Notes under the pieces: generated by a model
The model's input: only the letters and a program-made list of their open reading frames with translations
The model's database searches: none
What the model was told of the DNA's origin: nothing
Made by a program: the position numbers and the translations under genes
Source of the DNA: Squalus acanthias
Lineage: Eukaryota
Length of the DNA: 64,000 nucleotides
Direction of reading: 5' to 3'
Assembly: GCA_030390025.1 (NCBI GenBank)
Contig: CM059432.1
Coordinates: 68,078,001 to 68,142,000, forward strand
Shown here: positions 909-43,995 of the stretch, piece after piece
Numbering within the stretch: position 1 is the first letter of the stretch
How the letters are laid out: the number at the start of each line of letters is the position of its first letter

Positions 909-3796
909 TTTGTGTCTTAATGCGAGGAGCATTCGTAATAAGGTGGATGAATTAGCTGCACAAATAGATGTAAACGGATATGATATAATTGGGATTACGG
1001 AGACATGGCTCCAGGATGAACAAGTCTGGGAATTCAACATCCAGGGGTATTCAATATTCAGGAAGGACAGGCAAAAAGGAAAAGGAGGTGGGGTAGCATT
1101 GCTGGTTAAAGAGGAGATTAACACAATAGTAAGGAAGGATATTAGCTTTGATGATGTGGAATCTGTATGGGCAGAGCTGAGAAATACCAAGGGGCAGAAA
1201 ACATTAGTGGGAGTTGCATACAGACCCCCAAACAGTAATGCTGAGGTTGGGGATGGCATTAAACTGGGAAATTAGAGACGTGTGCAATAAGGGCACAGCA
1301 GTTATCATGGGTGACTTTAATCTACATATAGATTGGGCTAACCAAATTAGTAGCAATACTGTGGAGGAGGAATTCGGGATGGTTTCCTGGACCAATATGT
1401 TGAGGAACCAACTAGAGATCAGGCCATCTTAGACTGGGTATTATGTAATGAGAAAGGATTAATTCGCAATCTTGTTGTGCGAGGCCCCTTGGGGAGGAGC
1501 GATCATAATATGATAGAATTCTTCATTAAAATGGGGAGTGAAGTAGTTGACTCAGAGACTAGGGTCCTGAATTTAAATAAAAGAAACTGCGATTGTATGA
1601 GGCACGAGTTGGCTAGGATGGATTGGGGAACATTACTTAAAGGGTTGATGGTGGATAGGCAATGGCAAGCATTTAAAGATCACATGGATGAACTACAGAA
1701 TTTGTTCATCCCTGTTTGGCATATAAATAAAACAAAAAAGGTGACTCAACCGTGGCTAATAAGGGAAATTAGGGATAGCATAAGATCCAAGGAGAGGACA
1801 TATAATTTGGCCAGAAAAAGCAGCAAACCTGAGGATTGGGAACAGTTTAGGATTCAGCCAAGGAGGACAAAGGGATTAATTAAGAGGGGGAAAATAGATT
1901 ATGAGAGTAAGATTGCAGGGAACATAAAAACTGACTGTAGAAGCTTCTATAGATATGTGAAGAGAAAAAGATTGGTGAAGTCAAGCGTAGGTCCCTTGCA
2001 GTCAGAATCAGGGGAATTTATAATGGGGAACAAAGAAATGGCTGACGAATTAAATACATACTTTGGTTCTGTCTTCACAAAGGAGGACACAAATAACCTC
2101 CCAGAGATGTCGGGGAACATAGGGTCTAATGAGAGGGAGGAATTGAATGAAATCAGTATTTGTAGGGAAATGGTGTTAGGGAAATTGATGGGATTGAAGG
2201 CCGATAAATCCCCAGGGCCTGATAATCTACATCCTAGGGTACTTAAGGAAGTGGCCCTAGAAATAGTAGATGCATTGCTGGTCATCTTCCAAAATTCTAT
2301 AGGCTCTGGAACAGTTCCCATGGATTGGAGGATAGCTAATGTAACCCCACTATTTAAAAAAGGTGGTAGAGAGAAAACGGGGAATTATAGACCGGTAAGT
2401 CTGACATCGGTAGTGGGGAAACTGCTAGAGTCCATTATAAAAGATATAATGGCAGAGCACTTGGAAAACGGTGACAGGATCGGACAAAGTCAACATGGAT
2501 TTACAAAAGGTAAATCATGCTTGACTAATCTACTGGAATTTTTTGAGGATGTAACTGGTAGAATAGATAAGGGAGAACCAGTGGATGTGGTGTATTTGGA
2601 CTTTCAGAAGGCTTTCGATAAGGTCCCGCATAAGAGATTAGCATGCAAAGTTAAAGCACACGGGATTGCGGGTAAGGTATTGTCTTGGATAGAGAACTGG
2701 TTGGCAGACAGGAAGCAAAGAGTTGGAATAAACGAGTCTTTTTCCGAGTGGCAGGCAGTGACTAGTGGGGTACCGCAGGGATCGGTGCTAGGACCCCAGC
2801 TATTCACAATATTTATAAATGATCTAGACGAGGGAACTAGATGTAATATCTCCAAGTTTGCAGACGACACAAAGCTGGGTGGGCGTGTGTGCTGTGAGGA
2901 GGATGCAGAGAAACTCCAGTATGATTTGGACAGGTTGGGTGATTGGGCAGCTGCATGGCAAATACAGTATAATGTGGATAAATGCGAGGTTATCCACTTC
3001 GGTGGCAAAAACAGGAAGACAGATTATTATCTGAATGGCAATAGATTGGGAAAAGGGGAAGTGCAACGAGACCTGGGTGTCCTTGTGCACCAGTCGCTGA
3101 AGGTAAGCATGCAGGTGCAGCAGGCGGTTAAGAAGGCAAATGGTATGTTGGCCTTCATAGCGAGAGGATTCGAGTACAGGAGCAAGGATGTCTTGCTGCA
3201 GTTGTACAAGGCCTTGGTGAGACCACACCTTGAGTATTGTGTGCAGTTTTGGTCACCTTATCTGAGGAAGGATGTTCTTGCCATAGAGAGAGTGCAGCAA
3301 AGATTCACCAGACTGATACCTGGGATGGCACTAATGACGTATGATTAGAGATTGGGTTGATTAGGCTTATATTCGCTAGAGTTTAGAAGAATGAGTGGGG
3401 ATCTCATTGAAACTTATAAAATTCTAACAGGACTAGACAGACTAGATGCAGGAAGGATGTTCCCGATGGCGGGGGAGTCCAGAACCAGGGGTCACAGTCT
3501 AAGGATAAGAGGTAAGCCATTTAGGACTGAGATGAGGAGGAATTTCTTCACCCAGAGAGTGGTGAACCTGTGGAATTCTCTACCACACAAGACAGTTGAG
3601 GCCAATTCATTAAATATATTCAAGAAGGAGTTAGATATATTTCTTAAGGCGAAAGGGATCAAGGGATATGGGGAGAAAGCAGGGACAGGGTACTGAATTT
3701 GGATGATCAGCCATGATCTCATTAAATGGTGGAACAGGCTCGAGGGGCCGAATGGTCTACTCCTGCTCCTATCTTCTATGTTTCTATGTTTCTATC
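909..3796 (+). mobile_element. CR1 LINE, ORF2 (APE endonuclease + RT), frameshifted/stopped, with 3' UTR and (TTCTATGT)n-type tail
   Basis: LNARSIRNK, ITETW, YRPP, SDHN, YLDFQKAFDKV, GVPQGSVLGP, KFADDTKL; tail at ~3775-3796; 5' side cut by the Harbinger end. Confidence 0.95.
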
Positions 3797-5760: not shown

Positions 5761-6476
5761 TGTAGAAATATGAACTGGTGAATTGTGTAAAAAGGTTGCC
5801 TTTAGAAAATGGTCGAGGACTGCGAAAACTGCAGCCAGAGTGAGGTCTCAAATAAACAAAACCTTGAAGCTGGGGGCCTAGGGCTGCTCAAATAACATAG
5901 TTAACAGGCCTGCAAGAGATGACAAGCTCGCAGGATGATCGAGTCTACGACAATCATTAACTCAAGATAAGGGTGACAATCTAGTCTAATGGTTGAGCAG
6001 TCGCAAATCACATAATAAGGGACCTCTGGAATTCCCTAAACGACCAAGGATACCGATTGGCTAAGGTTAGACACATCTCAGACAAAATGGCCGAACCTGC
6101 ACAAGGCACATAGGTAGTCAAAATATAGATATAAAAGAAGGGAGCCAAGAGCTAGTTTAGCAGCGAGAACCTAGGAATCACACTCTAGAAGGGAGGAGCC
6201 ACAAGTCCGGGACTTGTTGTAGGACACCAGCGCGAAGGCTGATCAACTTTCAAACGGGTAATATTGTTTTAAGCTAGCACACATGAGAAGTGAGCCCTGT
6301 GTCATTTTCCCTGTAAGTTATTCAAACAACTTGTTAACAAATAAAGTAATGAATTTATGCAACTTATTGAGTCCGACCGACATTTGACACTCTGAACTAA
6401 GAACCATAATTGTTGAACTGTTGTTGAACTGACTAATTATTACTAGCTCAATAGATACTGTGAATTCGGGACAACA
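5761..6476 (+). mobile_element. 3' LTR of the env-bearing element
   Basis: Starts TG after PPT; TATAAAA ~6130; AATAAA ~6340; ends ...ACAACA at the minisatellite (end uncertain). Confidence 0.75.
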
Positions 6477-8030
6477 CACAGCCCATTCTACTTCTCCTCA
6501 CACATCCCATTCTACCTCTCCTCACACATCCCATTCTACCTCTCCTCACACATCCCATTCTACCTCTCCTCACACATCCCATTCTACCTCTCCTCACACA
6601 TCCCATTCTACCTCTCCTCACATCCCATTCTACCTTTCTCACACATCCCATTCAGTCTCTCTTCCCACATCCCATTCTACCTCTCCTCACATCCCATTCT
6701 ACCTCTCCTCACATCCCATTCTACCTCTCCTCACACATCCCATTCTACCTCTCCTCACACATCCCATTCTACCTCTCCTCACATCCCATTCTACCTCTCC
6801 TCACACATCCCATTCTACCTCCCCTCCCACATCCCATTCTACCTCTCCTCACATCCCATTCTACCTCTCCTCACACATCCCATTCTACCTCTCCTCCCAC
6901 ATCCCATTCTACCTCTCCTCACATCCCATTCTACCTCTCCTCACACATCCCATTCTACCTCTCCTCACACATCCCATTCTACCTCTCTTCACATCCCATT
7001 CTACCTCTCCTCACACATCCCATTCTACCTCTCCTCACACATCCCATTCTACCTCTCCTCACACTTCCCATTCTACCTCTCCTCACACATCCCATTCTAC
7101 CTCTCCTCACATCCCATTCTACCTTTCTCACACATCCCATTCTACCTCTCCTCACACTTCCCATTCTACCTCTCCTCACACATCCCATTCTACCTCTCCT
7201 CACATCCCATTCTACCTTTCTCCCACGTCCCATTCTACCTCTCCTCACACATCCCATTCTACCTCTCCTCACATCCCATTCTACCTCTCCTCACACATCC
7301 CATTCTATCTCTCCTCACACGTCCCATTCTACCTCTCCTCACACATCCCATTCTACCTCTCCACTCACTGTCCCATTCTACCTCTCCACTCACTGTCCCA
7401 TTCTACCTCTCCTCACACATCCCATTCTACTTCTCCTCACACATCCCATTCTACCTCTCCTCACACATCTCATTCTACCTCTCCACTCACTGTCCCATTC
7501 TACCTCTCCACTCACTGTCCCATTCTACCTCTCCTCACAAACCCATTCTACCTCTCCTCGCACATCCCATTCTACCTCTCCTCGCACATCCCATTCTTCC
7601 TCTCCTCACACATCCCATTCTTCCTCTCCTCACACATCCCATTCTTCCTCTCCTCACACATCCCATTCTACCTCTCCTCACACATCCCATTCTACCTCTC
7701 CTCACACATCCCATTCTACCTCTCCTCACACATCCCATTCTACCTCTCCTCACACATCCCATTCTACCTCTCCTCACACATCCCATTCTACCTCTCCTCA
7801 CATCCCATTCTACCTCTCCTCACACATCTCATTCTACCTCTCCTCACATATCCCAATCTAACTCTCCTCACACATCTCATTCTACCTCTCCTCACACATC
7901 CCAATCTAACTCTCTTCACACATCCCAATCTAACTCTCCTCACACATCTCATTCTACCTCTCCTCACACATCCCATTCTACCTCTCCTCACACATCCCAT
8001 TCTACCTCTCCTCACACATCCCAATCTACC
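6477..8030. repeat. 24-bp minisatellite (CACACATCCCATTCTACCTCTCCT)n with 22-bp variants, block 1
   Basis: Direct reading; gives HTSHSTSP 8-aa repeats in translation. Confidence 0.97.
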
Positions 8031-9297
8031 GCTACTTGAAGGGATAATTAAAAGTCCTAGCCCTTTTCGGGCTACCTCAGATCAGGCATATTCCCCAGAC
8101 GTTCACCTTCAACTAAAGTTAGCGGTAGCCGAATCCTAGTGACGCTTAATTGGGTCTAAAGGTTCAGACTATCTCTCCCTAAAGGAAAGGAATGGCCTGA
8201 AGATGTTACCTGTCCTCCGGATAGCACTTTCCACAAGTTTAACTGGACTGTAACCTTCCAGATATTATGAGCTTCCGGAAAACCCCCCCAGAATTCTGCA
8301 ACTCCTCACTGAAGAGTGTACAGAAATTGAGTTTGCAGGATTGATACAGAAATACTCTTTGAGACAATTTTAAACATATGTAGATTTATTAAAGAACCAA
8401 CATCTAATTAACAGCTGGTATGGCAATCGCAACTTTAACCGTTCAAAATACAAATAGCTTACATTTCTTATCAGAGATCCTTATTCTCAAATCTTAACTT
8501 CGTTACATTTCCACACTTCTACTTATTTCTTAATCCAGAATATCCCCCAAAATCAAATACCTTGATTACCCAAGACTCAGAGTTAAAAACTTACAGAGCG
8601 TGCCTGTGAAGTTGAGAAACGCTTGCCCTTCCAGCGACTTCTGACTCTCTATCTGAAAAGCTCTTATTTTTATACTCTTTTTAAGTAGTATATTCTTTGA
8701 AGTTTTCTTTTGATGTAAGCTAATTGTCTCTAGTGATACTCTATTGAATTCTTTTCTATTCTTACTGTCATTTCAGCTGCCAACTTTTAGAATTCTGTCT
8801 CTACCTTTAGGTGTTTCAAAAGCTATCATAAAATGGTTATTACAGATTTATCTTTTGATGCTATTCTTAGGAAGTCTTTCTATTGAATTCTTAATATCAC
8901 TTAACTGCTTGTAAGCCAGACATCGTGACTCCGTGGTGTTCCAAGTTAACACATAAACAATGTGATTGCTTGGTGTCATCGATTGATATTATATTTTCAA
9001 AGTCTTCTGTCAGTATTTTTTACAATATGTAAATTGAAAACACTTCAACTATGGTGTTTGCTTGTTTTCTAGCTACTTCAATTGGTTTTATATTTAATCG
9101 TGTTTCCTGTCTTATTTGATGTTATTTTATGAAGGCATATGGTTGTTTAATGTTCTAAGTTTCTGTTTCCCTGAGTGTTAGCTTATACACTTTACTTACA
9201 TAGATACATAGATACATAGAAGATAGGAGCAGGAGTAGGCCATCCGGCCCTTCGAGCCTGCTCCGCCATTTAATGAGATCATGGCTGATCCTTCAAT

Positions 9298-11660
9298 TCA
9301 GTATCCCGTCCCCGCCTTCTCTCCGTAACCCTTAACCCCTTTTGCCTGTAGAAATATATCTAATTCCCTCTTAAATATATTTAATGAGCTGGCGTACACT
9401 GCCCTCTGTGGCAATGAGTTCCACAGGTTCACCACTCTCTGAGTGAAGAAATTCCCCCTCATTTCTGTCCTAAATGGTTTAGCCCTTATCCTTAAATTAT
9501 GTCCTCTAGTTCTGTTCTCACCCGCCAAGGGAAACATTCCTTCTGCATCTAATCTGTCTAGACCTGTCAGAATTTTATACACTTCTATGAGGTCCCCTCT
9601 CAATCTTCTAAACTCCAGTGTGTACATCCCTAAACTACATAGTCTCTCCTCATAGGTCAATCCCGCCATTCCTGGTATCAGCCTGGTGAATCGCCGCTGC
9701 ACCCCCTCCATGGCAAGAACATCTTTCCTCAGATGAGGCGACCAAAACTGTACACAGTACTCGAGGTGTGGTCTCACCAGTGCCCTGTACAGCTGCAGCA
9801 AGGTATCCCTGTTCCTGTATTCCAACCCTTTTGCTATGAAGGCCAGCATACCGTTTGCCTTCTTGACCGCCTGTTGCACCTGCATGCTCGCCTTCAGTGA
9901 CTGGTGTACAAGAACACCCAGGTCTCTCTGTACTTCCCCCTCTCCCAATTTATTGCCATTTAAATAATAATTTGCCCTCCCGTTCCTGCACCCAAGGTGG
10001 ATAACTTCGCACTTGTCCACATTATAGTGCATCTGCCATTTATCCGCCCAATCACCCAGTCTGTCCAAATCGCTCTGGAGCTTCCTGGTCTCCTCCTCTG
10101 AGCCCACCCCCCCTCCTAGTTTAGTGTCGTCTGCAAATTTGGAAATGCTGCATTCGACTCCCTGATCCAGGTCATTAATATAAATTGTGAACAGCTGGGG
10201 ACCCAGGACAGATCCCTGTGGTACCCCACTTGTTACTGCCTGCCATTCAGAAAATGAGCCGTTTATTCCAACTCTCTGTTTTCTATCTGACAGCCAGTTC
10301 TCTATCCACGTCAATACTTTCCCCTTTATCCCATGAGCTTCAATTTTCCATGCTAATCTTTTATGTGGGACCTTATCGAAGGCCTTTTGGAAGTCCAGGT
10401 ACACCACATCTACTGGCTCTCCCCCATCTATTTTACCAGTTACTCCCTCAAAAAATTCCAATAGATTAGTCAAGCACGATTTACCCTTTGTAAATCCATG
10501 TTGACTCTGTCCTATCCTGTCCCCATTTGCTAAGTGCTCGGCTATTTCATCCTTAATGATGGACTCCAGCATTTTGCCCACAACTGATGTAAGGCTTACA
10601 GGTCTGTAATTACCTGCTTTTTCCCTACCCCCCTTTTTGAATAGTGGGGTAACGTTAGCTACCCTCCAATCCATGGGCACTGTTCCCGAGTCTAATGAAT
10701 TCTGAAAAATCATGCTTAGTGCATCCGCTATCTCTAGGGCCACCTCCTTCAGTACCCTAGGATGCATGTTATCAGGCCCTGGGGATTTGTCCGCCTTCAA
10801 TCCCTTTAGCTTCCTTAACACCATATCCTTAGAGATATTGATTTGCGTCAGTTCCTCCTTTGCCAATGTCCCTATTTTTCCCGATATCCCAGGGAGGTTT
10901 TTTGTGTCTTCCTTCGTAAAGACTGACCCAAAGTATGCATTTAGTTGGTCTGCCATTTCCTTATTTCCCATTATATATTCCCCCGTATCTGACTGCAATG
11001 GACCAACTTTGGTTTTCACCAGTCTTTTCCTCTTGATATACTTATAAAAGCTTTTGGAGTTAGTTTTTATATTTTCCGCCAGCTTGCTTTCGTAAGCTAT
11101 TTTGCCCTTCTTGATTAAGCCCTTTGCCCTCCTTTGCTCTATCTTAAACTGTTCCCAATCTTCCGCTCTGGCGCGTTTTTTGGCTATTTTATACGCCCTA
11201 TCTTTGGATTTTATGCTGTCTCTAATTTCCCCTGTTATCCACGGTTGAGTCACCTTTTTAGATTTCCTTTTATGCCAGATTGGTATAAACAATTTTTGCA
11301 ATTTTGTCATTCTATCTTTAAATGCTTGCCATTGTTTATCTACCTCCAGTCCTCCCAGGAACGTTGTCCAATCAGACCTACTCAGTTCCCGTCTAATGGC
11401 ATCATAATTCCCCTTGTTTAAATTCAGGACCTGAGTCTCTGAGTCAATTTCTTCGCTCTCCATTTCGAGTGAGAAATCGATCATGTTATGATCGCTCTGA
11501 CCCAAGGGTCCCCGTACAACAAGATTACTAATTAGTCCCTTCTCATTGCACAGTACCCAGTCCAATATAGCCTGTTCCCGAGTTGGTTCCTCGACATATT
11601 GATCCAGATAACCATCCCTTAAACACTCAAGGAATTCCTCCTCCTCATTATTTTTACTGA
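9298..11660 (-). CDS. CR1 ORF2 C-terminal part (endonuclease end + reverse transcriptase), uninterrupted
   Basis: 755-aa ORF with SDHN, YLDFQKAFDKV, GVPQGS, FADD. Confidence 0.95.
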
Positions 11661-12316
11661 TTAGACCAGCGTCGACAGCGGCGGAGCAGGAGCCTTTCTT
11701 TCTTTTTCTCCCACAGAGCGGTCGGCAGCGGGGAAGGAGGAGCGGACCTGGTTGGAGCGGCGGGAGCGGCGGCGAGTCGATAAAGGGAGCCCCGAGGCTC
11801 AGGTAGGCCTCAGACCAGCGTCGACAGCGGCGGAGGAGGAGCCTTTCTTTCTTTTTCTCCCACAGAGCGGTCGGCAGCGGGGAAGGAGGAGCGGACCTGG
11901 TTGGAGCGGCATTTAAGGAGGGTGGTGGCTTAAACCCGAGTTCCTACAGAGTAGGAACCCCCACCCGCCCTCCTCCTCTAACCTAGTAGTCTTTTAGCAG
12001 TCTAAAAACAGAGGTCACAAATTTTTTGGTCTCAGTTTCTTTTCAGCAGAGCAGGAACCGGGAGGAGCGGGAAGTCGGCGTAGGACCAAGGGGACACAAG
12101 ACCGGGAAGTCAGCGAAAGACCAGGGAGGTAAGACTAACTGGTAAGTACTTTCCTCAAACCTTCCTAGAAAGTACAACTAAAACTAGTGCGATTTGGTTA
12201 GTTTAAAAAGGAATAAGAGGAGTACAGTATACATTGGTCTAAGTAAGCTTCGGGAAAACAAAAGTCAATAAATAAACTAAAACTAGAAAATTAATAAGTA
12301 ATATAAGGGTTAAGTC

Positions 12317-13264
12317 ATGGCAGTAGAGCTCGGACCTGTGTCATGCTCCTCCTGTAACATGTGGGAAATCATGGACGCTTCCTGTGTCCCTGACAACCAT
12401 GTGTGCGGGAAGTGTGTCCAGCTGCAGCTCATGTGGGACCGCATGACGGCCCTTGAGCTGCGGATGGACTCACTTTGGAGCATCCACGATTCTGAGAGGG
12501 TTGTGAATAGCACATTTAGTGAGTTGGTCACACCGCAGGTTAAGGCCAGAGTAGATAGTACATGGGTGACCAAAAGGCAGAGCAAGGGCAGGAAGGTAGT
12601 GCAGGAATCCCCTGGGGTTGTCTCCCTCAGCAACAGGTTCACCGCCTTAGGTGCTGTTGTCGGGGGGGATGACTCATCGGGGGAAGGCACCAGCAGCCAG
12701 GCTCATGGCACCATGACTGGCTCTGTTGCAAAGAAGGGAGGGAAAAAGAGTGGCAGGGCTATAGTAATAGGGGATTCGATTGTAAGGGGATTAGATAGGA
12801 GTTTCTGTGGTCGCGACCGAGACTCCAGGATGGTAATTTGCCTCCCTGGTGCAAGGGTCAAGGATGTCTCGGCACGGGTGCAGAACATTCTGGAGGGGGA
12901 GGGGGAACAGCCAGTTGTCGTGATACATGTTGGTACCAACGACGTAGCTAAAAAAAGGGAAGAGGTCCTACAAGTAGAATTTAGGGAGTTAGGAGCCAAG
13001 CTAAAAAGTAGGACCTCGAAGGTAGTAATCTCTGGATTACTACCAGTGCCACGTGCTAGTAAGAGTACAGAGAACAGGATAGTTAGGCTAAATACGTGGC
13101 TTGAGCAGTGGTGTAAGAGGGAGGGTTTTAAATTTTTGAGGCATTGGGACCAGTTTTGTGGTAGGTGTGACCTATACAAAAGGGACGGTCTACACCTGTG
13201 CAAAGATGGAACTGATGTTCTCGGGGTAAATTTTGATAAAGCAGTTCGGGAGCATTTAAACTAG
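12317..13264 (+). CDS. CR1 ORF1p (Cys zinc-finger, coiled coil, SGNH/GDSL esterase domain)
   Basis: CSSC..CGKC, LELRMDSL, IVIGDSIVR, HVGTND, DGLHL. Confidence 0.92.
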   Translation: MAVELGPVSCSSCNMWEIMDASCVPDNHVCGKCVQLQLMWDRMTALELRMDSLWSIHDSERVVNSTFSELVTPQVKARVDSTWVTKRQSKGRKVVQESPGVVSLSNRFTALGAVVGGDDSSGEGTSSQAHGTMTGSVAKKGGKKSGRAIVIGDSIVRGLDRSFCGRDRDSRMVICLPGARVKDVSARVQNILEGEGEQPVVVIHVGTNDVAKKREEVLQVEFRELGAKLKSRTSKVVISGLLPVPRASKSTENRIVRLNTWLEQWCKREGFKFLRHWDQFCGRCDLYKRDGLHLCKDGTDVLGVNFDKAVREHLN

Positions 13265-13817
13265 TATGGCAGGGGGCTAGAAACCCATGTAGTGAAATAG
13301 AGGAAAGTGAAAGGCAGACAGAAATAAATGGTAAAAAGGAGAGGAACAAAAAACAAAGGGCCAAACTAATTCATAAAAAATGTGAGCATAAAAAAAGCCT
13401 GAGGGTTTTATACCTTAATGCGAGAAGCATCAGGAACAAGGTAGATGAATTAGCTGTGGAAATAGAGGTTAATAATTATGATCTAATTGGGATTACGGAA
13501 ACATGGTTGCAGGGTGAGCAGGGCTGGGAGCTTAACATACAGGGGTATTCAGTATTTAGGAAGGATCGACAAAAAAGAAAGGGAGGAGGGGTAGCATTGC
13601 TGGTAAAAGAGGGGATAAATGCAATTGAAAGGAAGGATATTAACTCAGTTAATACAGAATCTATATGGGTGGAGCTAAGAAATAGCGAGGGGCGAAAAAC
13701 ATTAATAGGAGTGGTATATAGGCCTCCAAATAGTAAAATAGAGGTTGGGGAGGGCATCACGAGGGAAATTAGAGAAGCGTGCAATAAGAGCACAGCTGTC
13801 ATCATAGGTGACTTTGA
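13255..13817 (+). CDS. CR1 ORF2 N-terminal endonuclease part, AUG-less, -1 frame to ORF1
   Basis: Open from TTT AAA CTA through LNARSIRNK, ITETW, YRPP, IIGDF. Confidence 0.85.
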
Positions 13818-14106
13818 CTTGGGTCATTCCATTGTGTTTCTCCCAAACTCCAGACCTTCTGGAAGCGCCAATGGTTTGCTTCAATAGGGGCATTGTTTTT
13901 GTGTTTACAACCATCTCCTATTTCAAAGCTTGTGGTGTTTTATAGCTTTTGTTAGCACTTCATCTTATCTCAGAAGCCTATATTGTGTTTGCAGCCTGTG
14001 TCGCCGAGGCTTTCCAGACTTTTAAACTCAGTATGTCTTGTATTAATAATATCAAAATCTGTTCATAGGATGATGTATTTCTTGGAATATGGCTTATTCC
14101 ATTACA

Positions 14107-14715: not shown

Positions 14716-16169
14716 CTTGTATTGTTCCTCCTTTTCGGTATCCTGCAGGACATCTCTTGATATTGTCTATGGAGACAGTTTTAAAAATATGCTTGCCATT
14801 TGACTGGTTAATATATATTCGAACTGTTCTTTCGTTAATAACAGAATGTATTGGAACAGGTTTTTTTCTCTTCGGTCTTAAACCAGGTTTTTACTCAAAC
14901 TTCTTTTCCTGTACCCATTCTCCTACTATGGGTTGCCATGCTTTTATTTGTCAATTTTTCTACCTATTTGCTTCCTTTATCCTCTGATCAATTCGATGAA
15001 TCTCCTTTGTTACTTCTTTTTTTTTTCTACTGTCGCTGTTGGGTCAAGGACTCAAAGTGTGTAGAGGCAATAAAAGAACTATGGGTAAGCGATGTATGCA
15101 TCTCAACCCCATACATCAGATAATATGGAGTTTTAGGGGGCAGATGCGGGCACATTATTGAGTGATAGCTGTACTTCCGAATGATGGCGGTCCACTTATT
15201 CCCCCTGATTCTCAACAATTTGACCAATAACTTTATTACTCCCCGATTTTTACATTCCACCAGCCCCGCTGATTGCGGAAGATGTGGTGTGCTGTGCTCT
15301 AACCCAATCCCCCTTTGTTCACGTAGGCTTTGAAGACCTTGGATACAAAGGCTCCGCCTTTAACGGAGTGTAAGATTTTGGGTGCAGCAGCTACACTAAT
15401 TATATCAGAAATAGCCCTGGCGAGTGCGTTTTCCAAAACAGTTTTTGTGGGGACCAGCCAGCAAAAGGAAGTGCATCCATCCACACAAACGAGAACATGT
15501 CTATATTCCAAAGATGGGGAAAGTGGTCCAATAAAGTCAATAAAGAATTTTCCCATTGGCTCATCAGCTTTCACAGGAGCCAATGGTGGTGGCTTAATTT
15601 AGTGATGACTTATTAGTCAAATAGCATGGTTCACAATTTGCCACGTATGTTTTACAGGCTCTAAGCATGCCTGGCCACCAATATAAGGGGGTCAATTTAC
15701 AGAATGTTGTTCTGGCACTACAATGTGCTTAACTTATGCCCTCGTGAGCTTCTTTTACAAGCTGTTCTCGTTTGTGGCTCGGGGGTACTTCTCGGTTTGC
15801 CTTGAGCAACTTAACTAGTACAATACCCGTAGGGGTTTCCGAGTAAGAGTACTTTGGTGGATATTCTGGTGGATTCTCTGTTATTGGGTCTAATAGCTGA
15901 ATCAGTTCCTCATCCTGATTAGCTGCCCGTTCTGCCCTAGTGATTACACTAACATTGGCAGGCCCCTCTTGAGGGGGTGTGATGCAGACCGAACGTTTCG
16001 CTTGTTCGTCAGCAAGACTGTTTCCTTTTGAGTGTAATATCCCAGTGGTATGCCCGTTTACATGAATCACCTGACAATTCTGTTTCTCCATCCTCGAATG
16101 GAGAATTTCTTCCCACAATGTGGGTTTAATAAAGTCTGCTTTCTCTAAAGCATACCGTAATGTGGATAA
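14699..16169 (-). pseudogene. pol: Foamy-virus-like pol: RNase H C-terminus and integrase, degenerate
   Basis: HVNGH..GNSLADEQA; YPPKYSY; AHC..YWWPGM; KFFIDFIGPLSPS..YRHVLVCVDGCTSFCWLVPTK; HSTPHLPQSAGLVE; WQPIVGEWVQE; TVSIDNIK, collinear with spumavirus Pol. Confidence 0.9.
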
Positions 16170-19165
16170 TTGGAGCACATTCTGGGGAAGGTGGGACCTA
16201 TACAAACAGGACGGTTTGCACCTGAACCAGAGGGGCACCAATATCCTGGGAGGGAAATTTGCTACGGCTCTTCGGGGGGGTTTAAACTAATTTGTCAGGG
16301 GGATGGGAAAAAGGGCTGTAGTCCACGAGCCAGTGGTGAGTGTAGGGAGGTACTGAGGAGGGTATCAAGGTCGCAGGAATGTACCGGCAGACAGGAAGAT
16401 GGCTTGAAGTGTGTCTACTTCAATGCAAGGAGCATCCGGAATAAGGTAGGAGAACTTGGAGCGTGGATTGGTACTTGGGACTACGATGTGGTGGCCATTA
16501 CGGAGACATGGTTAGAACAGGGACAGGAATGGTTGTTGGAAGTTCCGGGGTATAGATGTTTCAGTAAGAGTAGGGAAGTTGGTAAGAAAGGTGGAGGAGT
16601 AGCATTGTTAATCAAGGATAGTTTAACAGCGGCAGAAAGGCAGTTCGAGGGGGATCTGCCGTCTGAGGTAATATGGGCTGAAGTTAGAAATAGGAAAGGA
16701 GCGGTCACGTTGTTAGGAGTTTTCTACAGGCCCCCAAATAGTAATAAAGATGTGGAGGAAGAAATTGCAAAGCAGATTATGAATAGGTGTGGAGGTCACA
16801 GAGTAGTTGTCATGGGTGACTTCAACTTTCCAAATATTGATTGGAACCTTTATAGGTCAAACAGTTCGGATGGGATAGTTTTTGCACAGTGTGTGCAGGA
16901 GGGTTTCCTGACACAATATGTGGATAGGCCGACAAGAGGTGGGGCCACGTTGGATTTGGTACTGGGTAATGAACCGGGCCAAGTGTTTGATTTGTATGTG
17001 GGAGAGCACTTTGGAGATAGTGACCACAATTCGGTAACTTTCACTATTGCAATGGAGAGGGATAGGGCCATACGGCAGGGCAGGGTTTATAATTGGGGGA
17101 GGGGTAATTATGATGCGATTAGGCAAGAATTAGGGAGTATAAGATGGGAACAGAAACTATCAGGGAAAGGCACAAACGAAAAGTGGAGCTTTTTCATGGA
17201 GCAATTACTGCGTGTCCTTGATCGGTATGTCCCTGTCAGGCAGGGAGGAAATGGCCGAGTGAGAGAACCATGGTTCACAAAAGAGGTTGAATGTCTAGTC
17301 AAGAGGAAAAAGGAAGCGTATGTAAGGATGAGAAAACAAGGTTCAGTTGGGTCGATTGAGGGGTACAAGGTAGCAAGGAATGAGCTAAAAAAAAGAGCTT
17401 AGGAGAGCTAGGAGGGGGCATGAGAAGTCCTTGGCGGGTCGGATCAAGAAAAACCCCAAGGCTTTTTACTCTTATGTGAGAAATAAAAGAATGACCAGGG
17501 TGAGGGTAGGGCCGGTCAAGGACAGTAGTGGGAACTTGTGCATGGAGTCAGAAGAGATAGGAGAGGTGATGAATGAATACTTTTCGTCAGTGTTCACCGA
17601 GGAGAGGGGCCATGTTCTTGAGGATGAGAGTGTGATAAAGGTGGATAGGCTGGAGGTGGTAGATGTTCTGAGGGAAGATGTTTTAGCAATTTTGAAGAAC
17701 CTGAGGGTCGATAAGTCCCCTGGGCCAGATGGGATATATCCTAGGATTCTTTGGGAGGCAAGGGAGGAGATTGCAGAGCCTCTGGCTTTGATCTTTGGGT
17801 CCTCACTGTCCACGGGGATGGTGCCAGAGGACTGGAGAGTGGCGAATGTTGTTCCTCTCTTCAAGAAAGGAAATAGGAATGACCCTGGTAATTATAGGCC
17901 GGTTAGTCTTACTTCGGTGGTTGGTAAGATAATGGAAAAGGTCCTGAGGGATAGGATTTATGACCATTTGGAAAGGGGCAACTTAATCAGGGATAGTCAA
18001 CACGGATTCGTGAAGGGTAAGTCTTGCCTAACAAATTTGATTGAATTCTTTGAGGAGGTAACTAAGTGTGTAGATGAAGGTAGAGCAGTTGATGTCGTAT
18101 ACATGGATTTTAGTAAGGCGTTTGATAAGGTTCCCCATGGTCGTCTCATGAAGAAAGTAAGGAGTTGTGGGATAGAGGGAAATTTGGCCGATTGGATAAG
18201 TAACTGGCTATCTCATAGAAGGCAGAGGGTGGTGGTGGATGGAACATTTTCAGACTGGAGACCAGTTACCAGCGGTGTGCCACAGGGGTCGGTGCTGGGT
18301 CCTCTGCTGTTTGTGATTTTTATCAATGACTTGGAGGAGGGGACTGAAGGGTGGATCAGTAAATTTGCTGATGACACCAAGATTGGTGGAGTAGTGGATG
18401 AGGTGGAGGGCAGTTGTAGGCTGCAAAGAGACATTGATAGGATGCAGAGCTGGGCCGAAAAATGGCAGATGGAATTTAACCCTGATAAGTGCGAGGTGAT
18501 TCATTTTGGTAGGGCAAATTTGAATAAGCTTTACAGGGTCAACGGCAGGGTTCTGAGGAACGTGGAGGAGCAGAGGGATCTGGGGGTTCATATCCACAGA
18601 TCTCTGAAGGTTGCCACTCAAGTGGATAGAGCAGTAAAGAAGGCCTATGGTGTGTTGGCGTTTATTAACAGAGGGTTTGAGTTTAAGAACCGTGAGGTTA
18701 TGCTGCAACTGTACAGGACCTTGGTGAGACCACATTTGGAATATTGTGTGCAGTTCTGGTCACCTCACTATAGGAAGGACGTAGAAGCATTGGAAAGAGT
18801 GCAAAGGAGATTTACCAGGATGCTGCCTGGTTTGGGGGGGAGGTCTTATGAGGAAAGATTGAGGGAGTTGGGGCTTTTCTCTTTAGAGCGGAGGAGGATG
18901 AGAGGCGACTTAATAGAGGTTTATAAGATGATGAGGGGGATAGATAGAGTGGATGTTCAGAGACTATTTCCTCGGGTAGAGGCAGCTGTTACAAGGGGGC
19001 ATAACTATAAGGTGCATGGGGGGAGATATAGAAGGGATGTCCGAGGTAGATTCTTTACTCAGAGAGTGGTTGGGGTGTGGAATGGACTGCCTGCTGTGAT
19101 AGTGGAGTCGGACACTTTAGGAACTTTCAAGCGGTTATTGGATAAGCACATGGAGCACACCAGAG
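16170..19165 (+). mobile_element. CR1 LINE (second family): ORF1 end + near-intact ORF2 with one frameshift at A-run ~17390; 3' UTR/tail absent
   Basis: DGLHL..GGLN*; FNARSIRNK; ORFs 16170-17402 and 17431-19281; inserted in foamy RNase H. Confidence 0.93.
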
Positions 19166-19720: not shown

Positions 19721-20375
19721 ATTCTACCTGTCCTCACACATCCTATTCTAGCTCTACTCACACATCTCATTCTACCTCTCCTCACACGTCCCATTCTACC
19801 TCTACTCCCACATCCCATTCTAACTCTCCACACTCCTATTCTAGCTCTACTCACACATCTCATTCTACCTCTCCTCACACGTCCCATTCTACCTCTACTC
19901 CCACATCCCATTCTAACTCTCCTCACACATCCCATTCTACCTCTCCTCACACATCCCATTCTACCTCTACTCACAAATCTCATTCTACCTCTCCTCACAC
20001 ATCCCATTCTACCTTTCCTCACACATCTCATTCTAACTCTCCTCACACATTCCATTCTACCTCTCCTCTCACATCCCATTCTACCTCTCCTCACATCCCA
20101 TTCTACCTCTCCTCACACATCCCATTCTACCTCTCCTCACACATCCCATTCTACCTCTCCTCACACATCCCATTCTACCTCTCCTCTCACAGTCCATTCT
20201 ACCTCTCCTCACACATCCCATTCTACCTCTCCTCTCACAGTCCATTCTACCTCTCCTCACATCCCATTCTACCTCTCCTCACACATCCCATTCTACCTCT
20301 CCTCACACATCCCATTCTACCTCTCCTCACACATCCCATTCTACCTCTCCTTACACCTCCCACTCTACCTCTACT
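19721..20375. repeat. 24-bp minisatellite, block 2 (same unit and strand as block 1)
   Basis: CACACATCCCATTCTACCTCTCCT repeats. Confidence 0.97.
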
Positions 20376-20379
20376 CAGC

Positions 20380-42500: not shown

Positions 42501-42615
42501 GGTAGGAAGGGGGGAAGTGTGCAGGGGATGGAGATCACCCTCGAAGGCCGAAAAGTAAAAATTATGCACTAAATGGGGGGAATGTTGGTGGTAAAGTTTG
42601 ATGTTCATCTTAATA

Positions 42616-43995
42616 GAAACATAGAAACAGAAAAATAGGAGCAGGAGTAGGCCATTCGGCCCTTCGAGCCTGCTCCGCCATTCAATATGATCATGGCTGA
42701 TCCTCTATCTCAATACCATATTCCCGCTCTCTCCCCATACCCCTTGATGCCTTTTGTGTCTAGAAATCTATCTATCTCCTTCTTAAATATATTCAGTGAC
42801 TTGACCTCCACAGCCTTCTGTGGTAGAGAATTCCACAGGTTCACCACACTCTGAGTGAAGAAATTTCTCCTCATCTCAGTCCTAAATGTCCTACCCCGTA
42901 TCCTGAGACTGTGACCCCTCGTTCTAGACCCCCCAGCCAGGGGAAACATCCTCCCTGCATCCAGTCTGTCTAGCCCTGTCAGAATTTTAAACGTTTCAAT
43001 GAGATCCCCTCTCATTCTTCTAAACTCTAGTGAATACAGGCCTAGTCGACCCAATCTCATACGACAGTCCTGCCATCCCAGGAATCAGTCTGGTGAACCT
43101 TCGCTGCACTCCCTCTATGGCAAGTATATCCTTTCTTAGGTAAGGAGACCAAAACTGCACACAGTACTCCAGGTGTGGTCTCACCAAGGCCCTGTACAAC
43201 TGTAGTAAGACATCCTTGCTCCTGTACTCAAATCCTCTTGCAATGAAGGCCAATATACTATTTGCCTTCCTAACTGCTTGCTGCACCTGCATGTTTGCCT
43301 TCAGTGACTGGTGTACAAGGACACGCAGATCCCTTTGTACATCAACATTTCCCAATCTATCACCATTTAAATAATACTCTGCCTTTCTGTTTTTCCTACT
43401 GAAGTGGATAACTTCACATTATACTGCATCTGCCATGTATTTGCCCACTCACTCAACTTGTCTAAACCGCCTTGAAGCCTCTTTGCATCCTCCTCACAAC
43501 TCACAATCCCACCTAGTTTCGTGTCGTCAGCAAACTTGGAAATATTACATTTGGTTCCCTCATCCAAATCATTGATATATATTGTGAATAACTGGGGCCC
43601 AAGCACTGATCCCTGCGTTACCCCACTAGTCACCACCTGCCACCCCAAAAAAGACCCATTTATTTCTACTCTCTGTTTCCTGTCTGTTAACCAATTTTCA
43701 ATCCATGCCAGTATATTACCCCCAATCCCACGTGCTTTAATTTTTCACACTTACCTCTTATGTGGGACTTTATCAAAGGCCTTCTGAAAATCCAAATACA
43801 CCACATCCACTGGTTCTCCCTTATCTATTCTACCAGTTACATCCTCAAAAAACTCCAGTAGGTTTGTCAAACACGATTTCCCTTTCATAAATCCATGTTG
43901 ACTTTGTCTAATCCCGTTGATATTTTCTAAATGTCCTGTTATCACATCCTTTATAATAGACTCTAGCATTTTCCCTACTACTGATGTTAGGCTAA
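42616..43995 (-). mobile_element. 5'-truncated CR1 inserted in the Harbinger intergenic region
   Basis: RT ORF pieces, tail at ~42616, candidate TSD TAATA. Confidence 0.9.

Follow-up and report, generated by a model that had tools for sequence, protein, structure and literature searches.

How ORF2 of a LINE is translated has been worked out for few elements. For SART1 and mammalian L1 the route is reinitiation, as covered in the available text of PMC5972666, and the available part of PMC5009743 treats L1 ORF2 as a case of unusual initiation and leaves CR1 unmentioned. In Dictyostelium, ORF2 of TRE5-A and TRE3-A needs a -1 frameshift according to a figure legend of PMC5911963, so that -1 frameshifting is a kind of recoding already known for LINEs; the available portion of that paper gives neither a shift site nor an assay for the two elements.

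CR1 is the dominant LINE in most vertebrates according to the available text of PMC13343379. The vertebrate canonical CR1 (subgroup 7, ORF1 type IVB; PMC4120745, PMC13343379) is the closest described system, and the locus studied here resembles it in a Cys-rich esterase ORF1, an ORF2 with APE endonuclease and reverse transcriptase (RT), and homologs in sharks, rays and reptiles. The word 'frameshift' is missing from the main text of PMC13343379, PMC4316615, PMC11303007, PMC4120745 and PMC3905857, and in the available parts of PMC11835228 and PMC4255032 it is used only for retroviruses or decay. We found no paper on CR1 frameshifting in a search that covers few subscription papers; the 1997 CR1 structure papers, the 2005 SART1 paper and the 2003 esterase paper may raise the idea.

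The CR1 junction in the window

The window, which is the whole 64-kb stretch of DNA analysed, is LINE-fragment-rich vertebrate DNA. Two CR1 copies in it (A and B) retain an ORF1/ORF2 junction, and several others are truncated at the 5' end:

11663..12316, + strand: likely 5' UTR of copy A (5' limit approximate)
12317..13264, + strand: copy A ORF1, 315 aa, ATG at 12317 (stop to stop 12314-13264)
13255..13261, + strand: slippery heptamer T TTA AAC, phased X XXY YYZ in ORF1
13262..13264, + strand: ORF1 stop TAG, immediately 3' of the heptamer (TAA or TGA in relatives)
13240..13821, + strand: copy A ORF2 in the -1 frame, variable linker leading to APE endonuclease (PF03372), without Met
13272..13276, + strand: G5 run, 11 bases past the heptamer, candidate stimulator
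16147..16290, + strand: copy B, 3' remnant of ORF1 with a G-L-N-stop end
16281..16290, + strand: copy B junction GGT TTA AAC TAA, phase as in copy A
16298..16307, + strand: copy B G-rich box GGGGGATGGG, at the +11 offset of copy A
16281..19144, + strand: copy B ORF2 with both endonuclease and RT, broken in frame once near 17389 and lacking its 3' end
1345-3795 (+), 9200-11662 (-) and 42613-43993 (-): further 5'-truncated CR1 copies, 77-83% alike

Copies A and B are without 3' ends, and related copies in the window finish in TTCTATG-like repeats. In the three truncated copies the RT frames are long and open, and the 3' ends are intact. Copy A starts back to back with the one that ends at 11662, and a 99-base direct duplication lies in its 5' UTR (window 11663-11910). 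Long C/T-rich tandem arrays at 6475-8036 and 19721-20377 share ~90% identity, with three minus-strand frames open.

The ORF1 of copy A consists of a Cys-rich N-terminus and an SGNH/GDSL esterase with intact GDS, GTND and DGLH motifs. The esterase matches Pfam PF13472 (E 1e-11), and the ORF1-family profile matches the LINE ORF1 esterase structure PDB 4C1B (E 5e-45). Sharks, skates and rays supply the closest named ORF1 homologs, and the esterase falls among those of vertebrates. The elements have the features of the vertebrate canonical CR1, namely an esterase ORF1 and an ORF2 with APE endonuclease and RT (the RT being taken from copy B), and the window junction matches rows labelled CR1 in PMC13343379.

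The ORF1 tail is REHLN*, and the junction reads GAG CAT TTA AAC TAG TAT GGC AGG GGG. The first-pass annotation had described an ORF1 end of CAT TTA AAC TAG with the heptamer phased X XXY YYZ, which is confirmed at 13255-13264. It had also described the -1 frame as open through the endonuclease, with an AUG-less ORF2 that shows no Met ahead of LNARS. The downstream frame is indeed open across the site, from 13240 to 13887, and reads FKLVWQG...YLNARS; the Asn of the NARS motif is codon 55 of this frame (13417-13419), and the 210 codons between the heptamer and the -1-frame stop contain no Met. Openness through the endonuclease holds only for its surviving part, since copy A is 3'-truncated: CR1 similarity stops near 13821, within the endonuclease, and the RT is lost.

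Copy B is the sole other ORF1/ORF2 junction in the window, and both junctions carry the in-phase heptamer. The ORF1 ends of the two copies share 47% protein identity, and the linkers 3' of the junction are not confidently alignable. The earliest Met of copy B ORF2 is codon 167, which lies deep within the endonuclease by alignment to the L1 endonuclease.

Logan contigs from 4 runs of 4 organisms aligned to 12900-13700. In 2 runs they cross all 801 bases with 5 differences and without a gap, and a more distant subfamily also crosses the junction, with gaps only at 13203-13206, where they compensate. Positions 13231-13285 are free of differences among the 40 rows listed (96 further rows exist). 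Such near-identical, gapless contigs indicate that the -1 layout is a property of the family and not a lesion of copy A.

Conservation of the junction in vertebrate CR1

The heptamer alone is common, with 22 occurrences of TTTAAAC on the two strands of the window, so the case rests on its conservation. The longer motif TTTAAACTA occurs 3 times in the window against 0.75 expected, and 6 of 100 shuffles reach 3. Canonical heptamers of any kind fall in phase at 15 places in the ~2,900 window CR1 codons. Given the codon usage of the window CR1 copies, T-TTA-AAC has a probability of ~0.037 for H-L-N and ~0.015 for G-L-N. What exceeds chance is the fixed position at the ORF1/ORF2 junction.

Vertebrate junctions computed as DNA were two, those of copies A and B. 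For a broader view we used the LINE consensus rows in the supplement of PMC13343379, of which the search covers the first 400 letters per row. There, TTTAAACTA has 23 matches, and 16 of the 22 listed sit at the ORF1 end as judged by eye; because the motif itself was the query, exceptions cannot be counted in this way. The rows with the motif at the ORF1 end come from alligator, crocodile, bullfrog, coelacanth, bowfin, halosaur, elephant shark, stingray, sawfish, catshark and dogfish, and the bearded dragon row has TTTAAAC-TGA. Synonymous spellings (Leu as CTG, TTG or CTA and Asn as AAT, each followed by TAG) gave 10 matches in the supplement, none of them in CR1 rows. Searches of the supplement for readthrough or GGGAAAC junctions found none at an ORF1 end. 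A search anchored on DGLH-type motifs was too unspecific for counting exceptions and was rejected.

The first-pass annotation had proposed that heptamer and phase be compared across CR1 consensus sequences, and both are conserved from sharks to crocodilians. In these rows, and within the view of the search, the heptamer is constant across vertebrate CR1, and both the stop codon and the linker beyond it are variable. The heptamer is thus conserved beyond the need of the protein, within the limits of a motif-based supplement search and of the kinship of the homologs.

The C-terminal Leu-Asn of ORF1

Protein homologs were collected by phmmer, a profile search and a search for longer proteins, which together gave 260 proteins, 176 of them with the catalytic DGxH. 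A C-terminal L-N is present in 31 of 106 phmmer matches, and L-N followed by the stop lies within 45 residues of DGxH in 75 of the 176 ORF1 homologs; an earlier count placed L-N exactly 26 residues past the Asp in 53 of 72. Named proteins with this ending come from sharks, rays, alligator, lizard, snake, turtles, eel and sturgeon. In a quick tree, whose alignment excluded the final residues, 24 of 27 rows in the clade that holds the window protein (SH-aLRT 97) finish in L-N.

The heptamer requires a T before TTA AAC, and the residue that precedes L-N is of 12 types, for which a T-ending codon is possible in 74 of 75 homologs and in 29 of 29 after thinning to <60% identity. In the 75 homologs this residue belongs to the two-codon NNY set in 24 cases versus a single E, and Q, K, M and W are never found. 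At position -4, E, Q, K, M or W occurs in 31 of 75 (their share among window CR1 codons is 23%), and these residues are likewise few at -7, -9 and -10 (3, 4 and 2 of 75). The T-ending test lends support to a conserved heptamer and is not proof of it, as other positions are also poor in these residues and the homologs are related.

Outside the clade of the window protein, 10 proteins finish in G-N (8 of them in Q-G-N) and 2 in S-K-N, and many distant ORF1 homologs end in neither L-N nor G-N/K-N. The esterase ORF1s of a fish L2-like group have no L-N ending. The alternative tails are:

P0154, P0156, P0158, P0159, P0168, P0171, P0202, P0217, P0227, P0244, P0180 and P0249: ORF1 ending in QGN, SGN, AGN or SKN

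As protein endings, (Q)GN and SKN fit G GGA AAC and A AAA AAC, which suggests that other heptamers may be used in distant lineages. U_UUA_AAC, G GGA AAC and A AAA AAC are ranked among the most shifty heptamers in the available part of PMC5009743.

Two ray gene models (P0030 and P0250) run from ORF1 without interruption into F-K-L and the endonuclease in a single frame, so that one-base length changes do occur at the junction. Two shark-type CR1 proteins (P0013 and P0263) are filed under bacterial names on short contigs, which are likely host contamination of bacterial assemblies.

Sequence downstream of the heptamer

Strong -1 frameshift sites usually have a 3' hairpin or pseudoknot. The first-pass annotation had called the site coronavirus-type and had suggested folding the downstream G-rich RNA. 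The heptamer agrees with that label. In contrast, four downstream folds from copies A and B showed no stability beyond shuffles and no stable hairpin (z -0.5 to 0), no pseudoknot or stem-loop was found 5-9 bases downstream in the two sequences, and neither a G-quadruplex nor a pseudoknot stem common to both copies was detected. Lacking a 3' pseudoknot or stem-loop, the site in copies A and B is not classed as a coronavirus-type signal.

What the two copies share is a G run that begins at +11 from the heptamer in each. In copy A the G5 run forms the core of a GGGGG(A)(T)GGG box that is present in most relatives, and at least 4 G occur within ~15 bases downstream in 12 to 13 of the 16 consensus rows, often as GGGGGATGGG. 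The box (window 13268-13284) is similar to GCAGGGGG.TGGA, a stretch that amniote CR1 carries in its 3' UTR. A candidate long-range pairing between the G box and the CR1 3' end, with 3' ends taken from other CR1 copies, was rejected after its control failed, as 10 to 49 other windows pair better.

A sister group with an in-frame TGA

A metagenome scan yielded 144 confirmed loci, of which 80 were kept, mostly decayed LINE copies with an esterase ORF1. They are distant LINEs, and vertebrate CR1 is not among them. The ORF1 stop lies 33 codons past DGxH in 29 of the 80 loci; it is TGA in all 29, which form five groups at <75% identity, and the next base is C in 27. In 19 of the 80, the ORF1 frame continues to the endonuclease motif without another stop, and in 3 of these 19 the earliest Met lies beyond the motif. 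The junctions concerned are:

L003, L005, L008, L009, L010, L012, L014, L020, L028-L031, L039, L041, L043, L062, L069 and others: single TGA followed by CTA or CCA between same-frame ORF1 and ORF2, candidate readthrough
L002 (2739-2750 region): TGA CTA, further in-frame esterase LINE junction
L046 and L079: TAG GAT, further in-frame esterase LINE junctions

UGA-CUA is a known readthrough context, and the in-frame TGA-C of the sister group suggests a fusion made by another recoding route. Reinitiation in place of readthrough is a live rival for this group, where ATG is the third codon past the TGA in 12 of the 29 loci. No structure was found 3' of the sister-group TGA (z -0.8 to 1.5). If readthrough is true, two branches of one ORF1 type reach fusion by different recoding.

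One fish L2-like ORF1 (P0094) extends as ...RVRT-W-LTG beyond the stop of its relatives, as if TGA had become TGG, which may hint at a readthrough-type junction in that group too. Viral contigs scanned with ORF1, the ORF1-family alignment and the endonuclease gave no relative, and 66 motif loci in them were discarded as chance because they have no ORF1/ORF2 similarity. A plasmid scan gave no match, and 16 genome-contig loci in bacteria-titled records (23-32% identity) were set aside.

Alternative explanations

The alternative that survives best, which we nevertheless hold to be improbable, is termination followed by reinitiation, or a non-AUG start just past the ORF1 stop, with the G box holding the 40S; a separate ORF2p would result, as in SART1 and L1. 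The LINE precedent (available parts of PMC5972666 and PMC5009743) speaks for it, as do the strictly kept position of the stop, TAATG with an AUG in the -1 frame at 2 of 16 consensus junctions, and the near-cognate ATT that overlaps the stop in copy B. The corresponding codon is GTA in copy A and varies widely in relatives, which speaks against it, and a conserved overlapping UAAUG of the SART1 type was not found and is missing from both copies. Nor is a common ORF2 start visible among homologs. Among the 8 closest of 34 long ORF2 homologs, the annotated start lies 16 to 94 residues before the NARS Asn, past it, or is missing; two alligator ORF2 proteins begin beyond this Asn, and some of the annotated Met may be GTG or TTG. 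Reinitiation further predicts neither a T before TTA AAC, nor fixed TTA and AAC codons, nor the GN and KN tails elsewhere.

Less probable again is that the conserved site has another role, either L-N as a protein end or TTTAAAC as a signal for DNA/RNA binding or for polymerase slippage, ORF2 being made by another route. Such a role would suit the further places where TTTAAACTA is found: ORF2, where it forms ordinary F-K-L codons, and the 5' UTR in two dogfish consensus rows (PMC13343379 supplement). The single-frame ray models, which read ORF1 straight into F-K-L, also favor it. Against it, the fish L2-like esterase ORF1s do without L-N, so the fold does not need this ending, and synonymous codons are not fixed by protein selection. 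As for polymerase slippage, a run of three is short.

It is very unlikely that ORF2 comes from a message, spliced or initiated internally, that links an upstream start with the -1 frame. The 5' UTR of copy A has splice-donor-like sites at 11803 and 12129, and the CTAG at the stop is a possible acceptor; yet the junction has no pyrimidine tract close by (9 of 18 bases at the most), the AG is missing in relatives with TAA or TGA, and the 5' UTR offers no ATG. Chance, with a heptamer that arose from A/T-rich codons (22 such sites in the window) and a -1 offset due to decay, has a negligible probability, since site and phase recur in two diverged copies, in gapless family contigs and across jawed vertebrates.

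Proposed mechanism

The junction site is real and conserved, and it is likely functional, as judged from the sequence comparisons. With a probability of about 0.72, we propose that the conserved U UUA AAC at the CR1 ORF1 stop drives programmed -1 frameshifting to give an ORF1-ORF2 fusion. The first-pass annotation had suggested this fusion from the one junction, and the comparison supports it. The reading draws on a conserved heptamer and phase next to a variable stop, the lack of a usable AUG, the other heptamers implied by distant ORF1 tails, and the readthrough-type junction of the sister group.

For most ribosomes translation would end at the UAG, with the 315-aa esterase ORF1p as the product. 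A minority would slip back by one base with tRNA-Leu and tRNA-Asn on UUA AAC and would read on through the linker, the endonuclease and the RT, giving ...H-L-(N or K)-L-V-W-Q-G at the junction. The weakest step is the pause: the neighbouring stop codon and the +11 G-rich box, perhaps bound by a protein, may cause it jointly in place of a local pseudoknot. Slippage would keep RT at a low level relative to ORF1p and may hold it in the complex that ORF1p forms on the element's own RNA. The esterase-bearing ZfL2-1 is cited in PMC13343379 for low ORF1 dependence, and this L2 relative may therefore make ORF2 without fusion.

A broader idea, which we offer tentatively and consider rather doubtful as a whole, is that esterase-ORF1 LINEs make their RT as a Gag-Pol-like fusion with swapped recoding devices: -1 slippage on U UUA AAC in vertebrate CR1 for >400 million years, G GGA AAC or A AAA AAC elsewhere, and UGA-C readthrough in the sister group. 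The vertebrate site would then be driven by a protein-read G box at +11 and not by a pseudoknot, and it might act as a host/ORF1p switch on RT output.

Comparison with known systems

New relative to the known description of CR1 is the proposed route of ORF2 translation. If frameshifting is true, CR1 has a retrovirus-like Gag-Pol logic in which an esterase domain is joined to RT, and the scattered or too-late methionines of annotated CR1 ORF2 proteins are explained. Anyone setting up a CR1 retrotransposition assay would also learn what protein to express, and the known natural frameshift sites would gain a widespread one that has no obvious RNA structure.

Viral -1 frameshifting, including retroviral Gag-Pol, shares with CR1 an upstream structural ORF and a downstream polymerase. 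In Rous sarcoma virus the gag stop directly follows the shift site. The two cases differ in that copies A and B are without a 3' pseudoknot or hairpin and that CR1 is a LINE in a host genome. The coronavirus IBV uses U_UUA_AAC according to the available part of PMC5009743, and both heptamer and phase are as in copy A. For protein-stimulated frameshifting in PRRSV, the C-rich box is bound by nsp1beta and PCBP, whereas the CR1 box is G-rich and a candidate only.

Among LINEs, TRE5-A and TRE3-A are also APE-type non-LTR elements with two ORFs, the second of which is said to need a -1 frameshift; they belong to another clade and have another ORF1. SART1 and mammalian L1 resemble CR1 in a bicistronic LINE RNA with low ORF2 output. 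In contrast, reinitiation in these elements leads to a separate ORF2p, and the L1 ORFs are parted by a 63-nt spacer where those of CR1 overlap at the slippery site.
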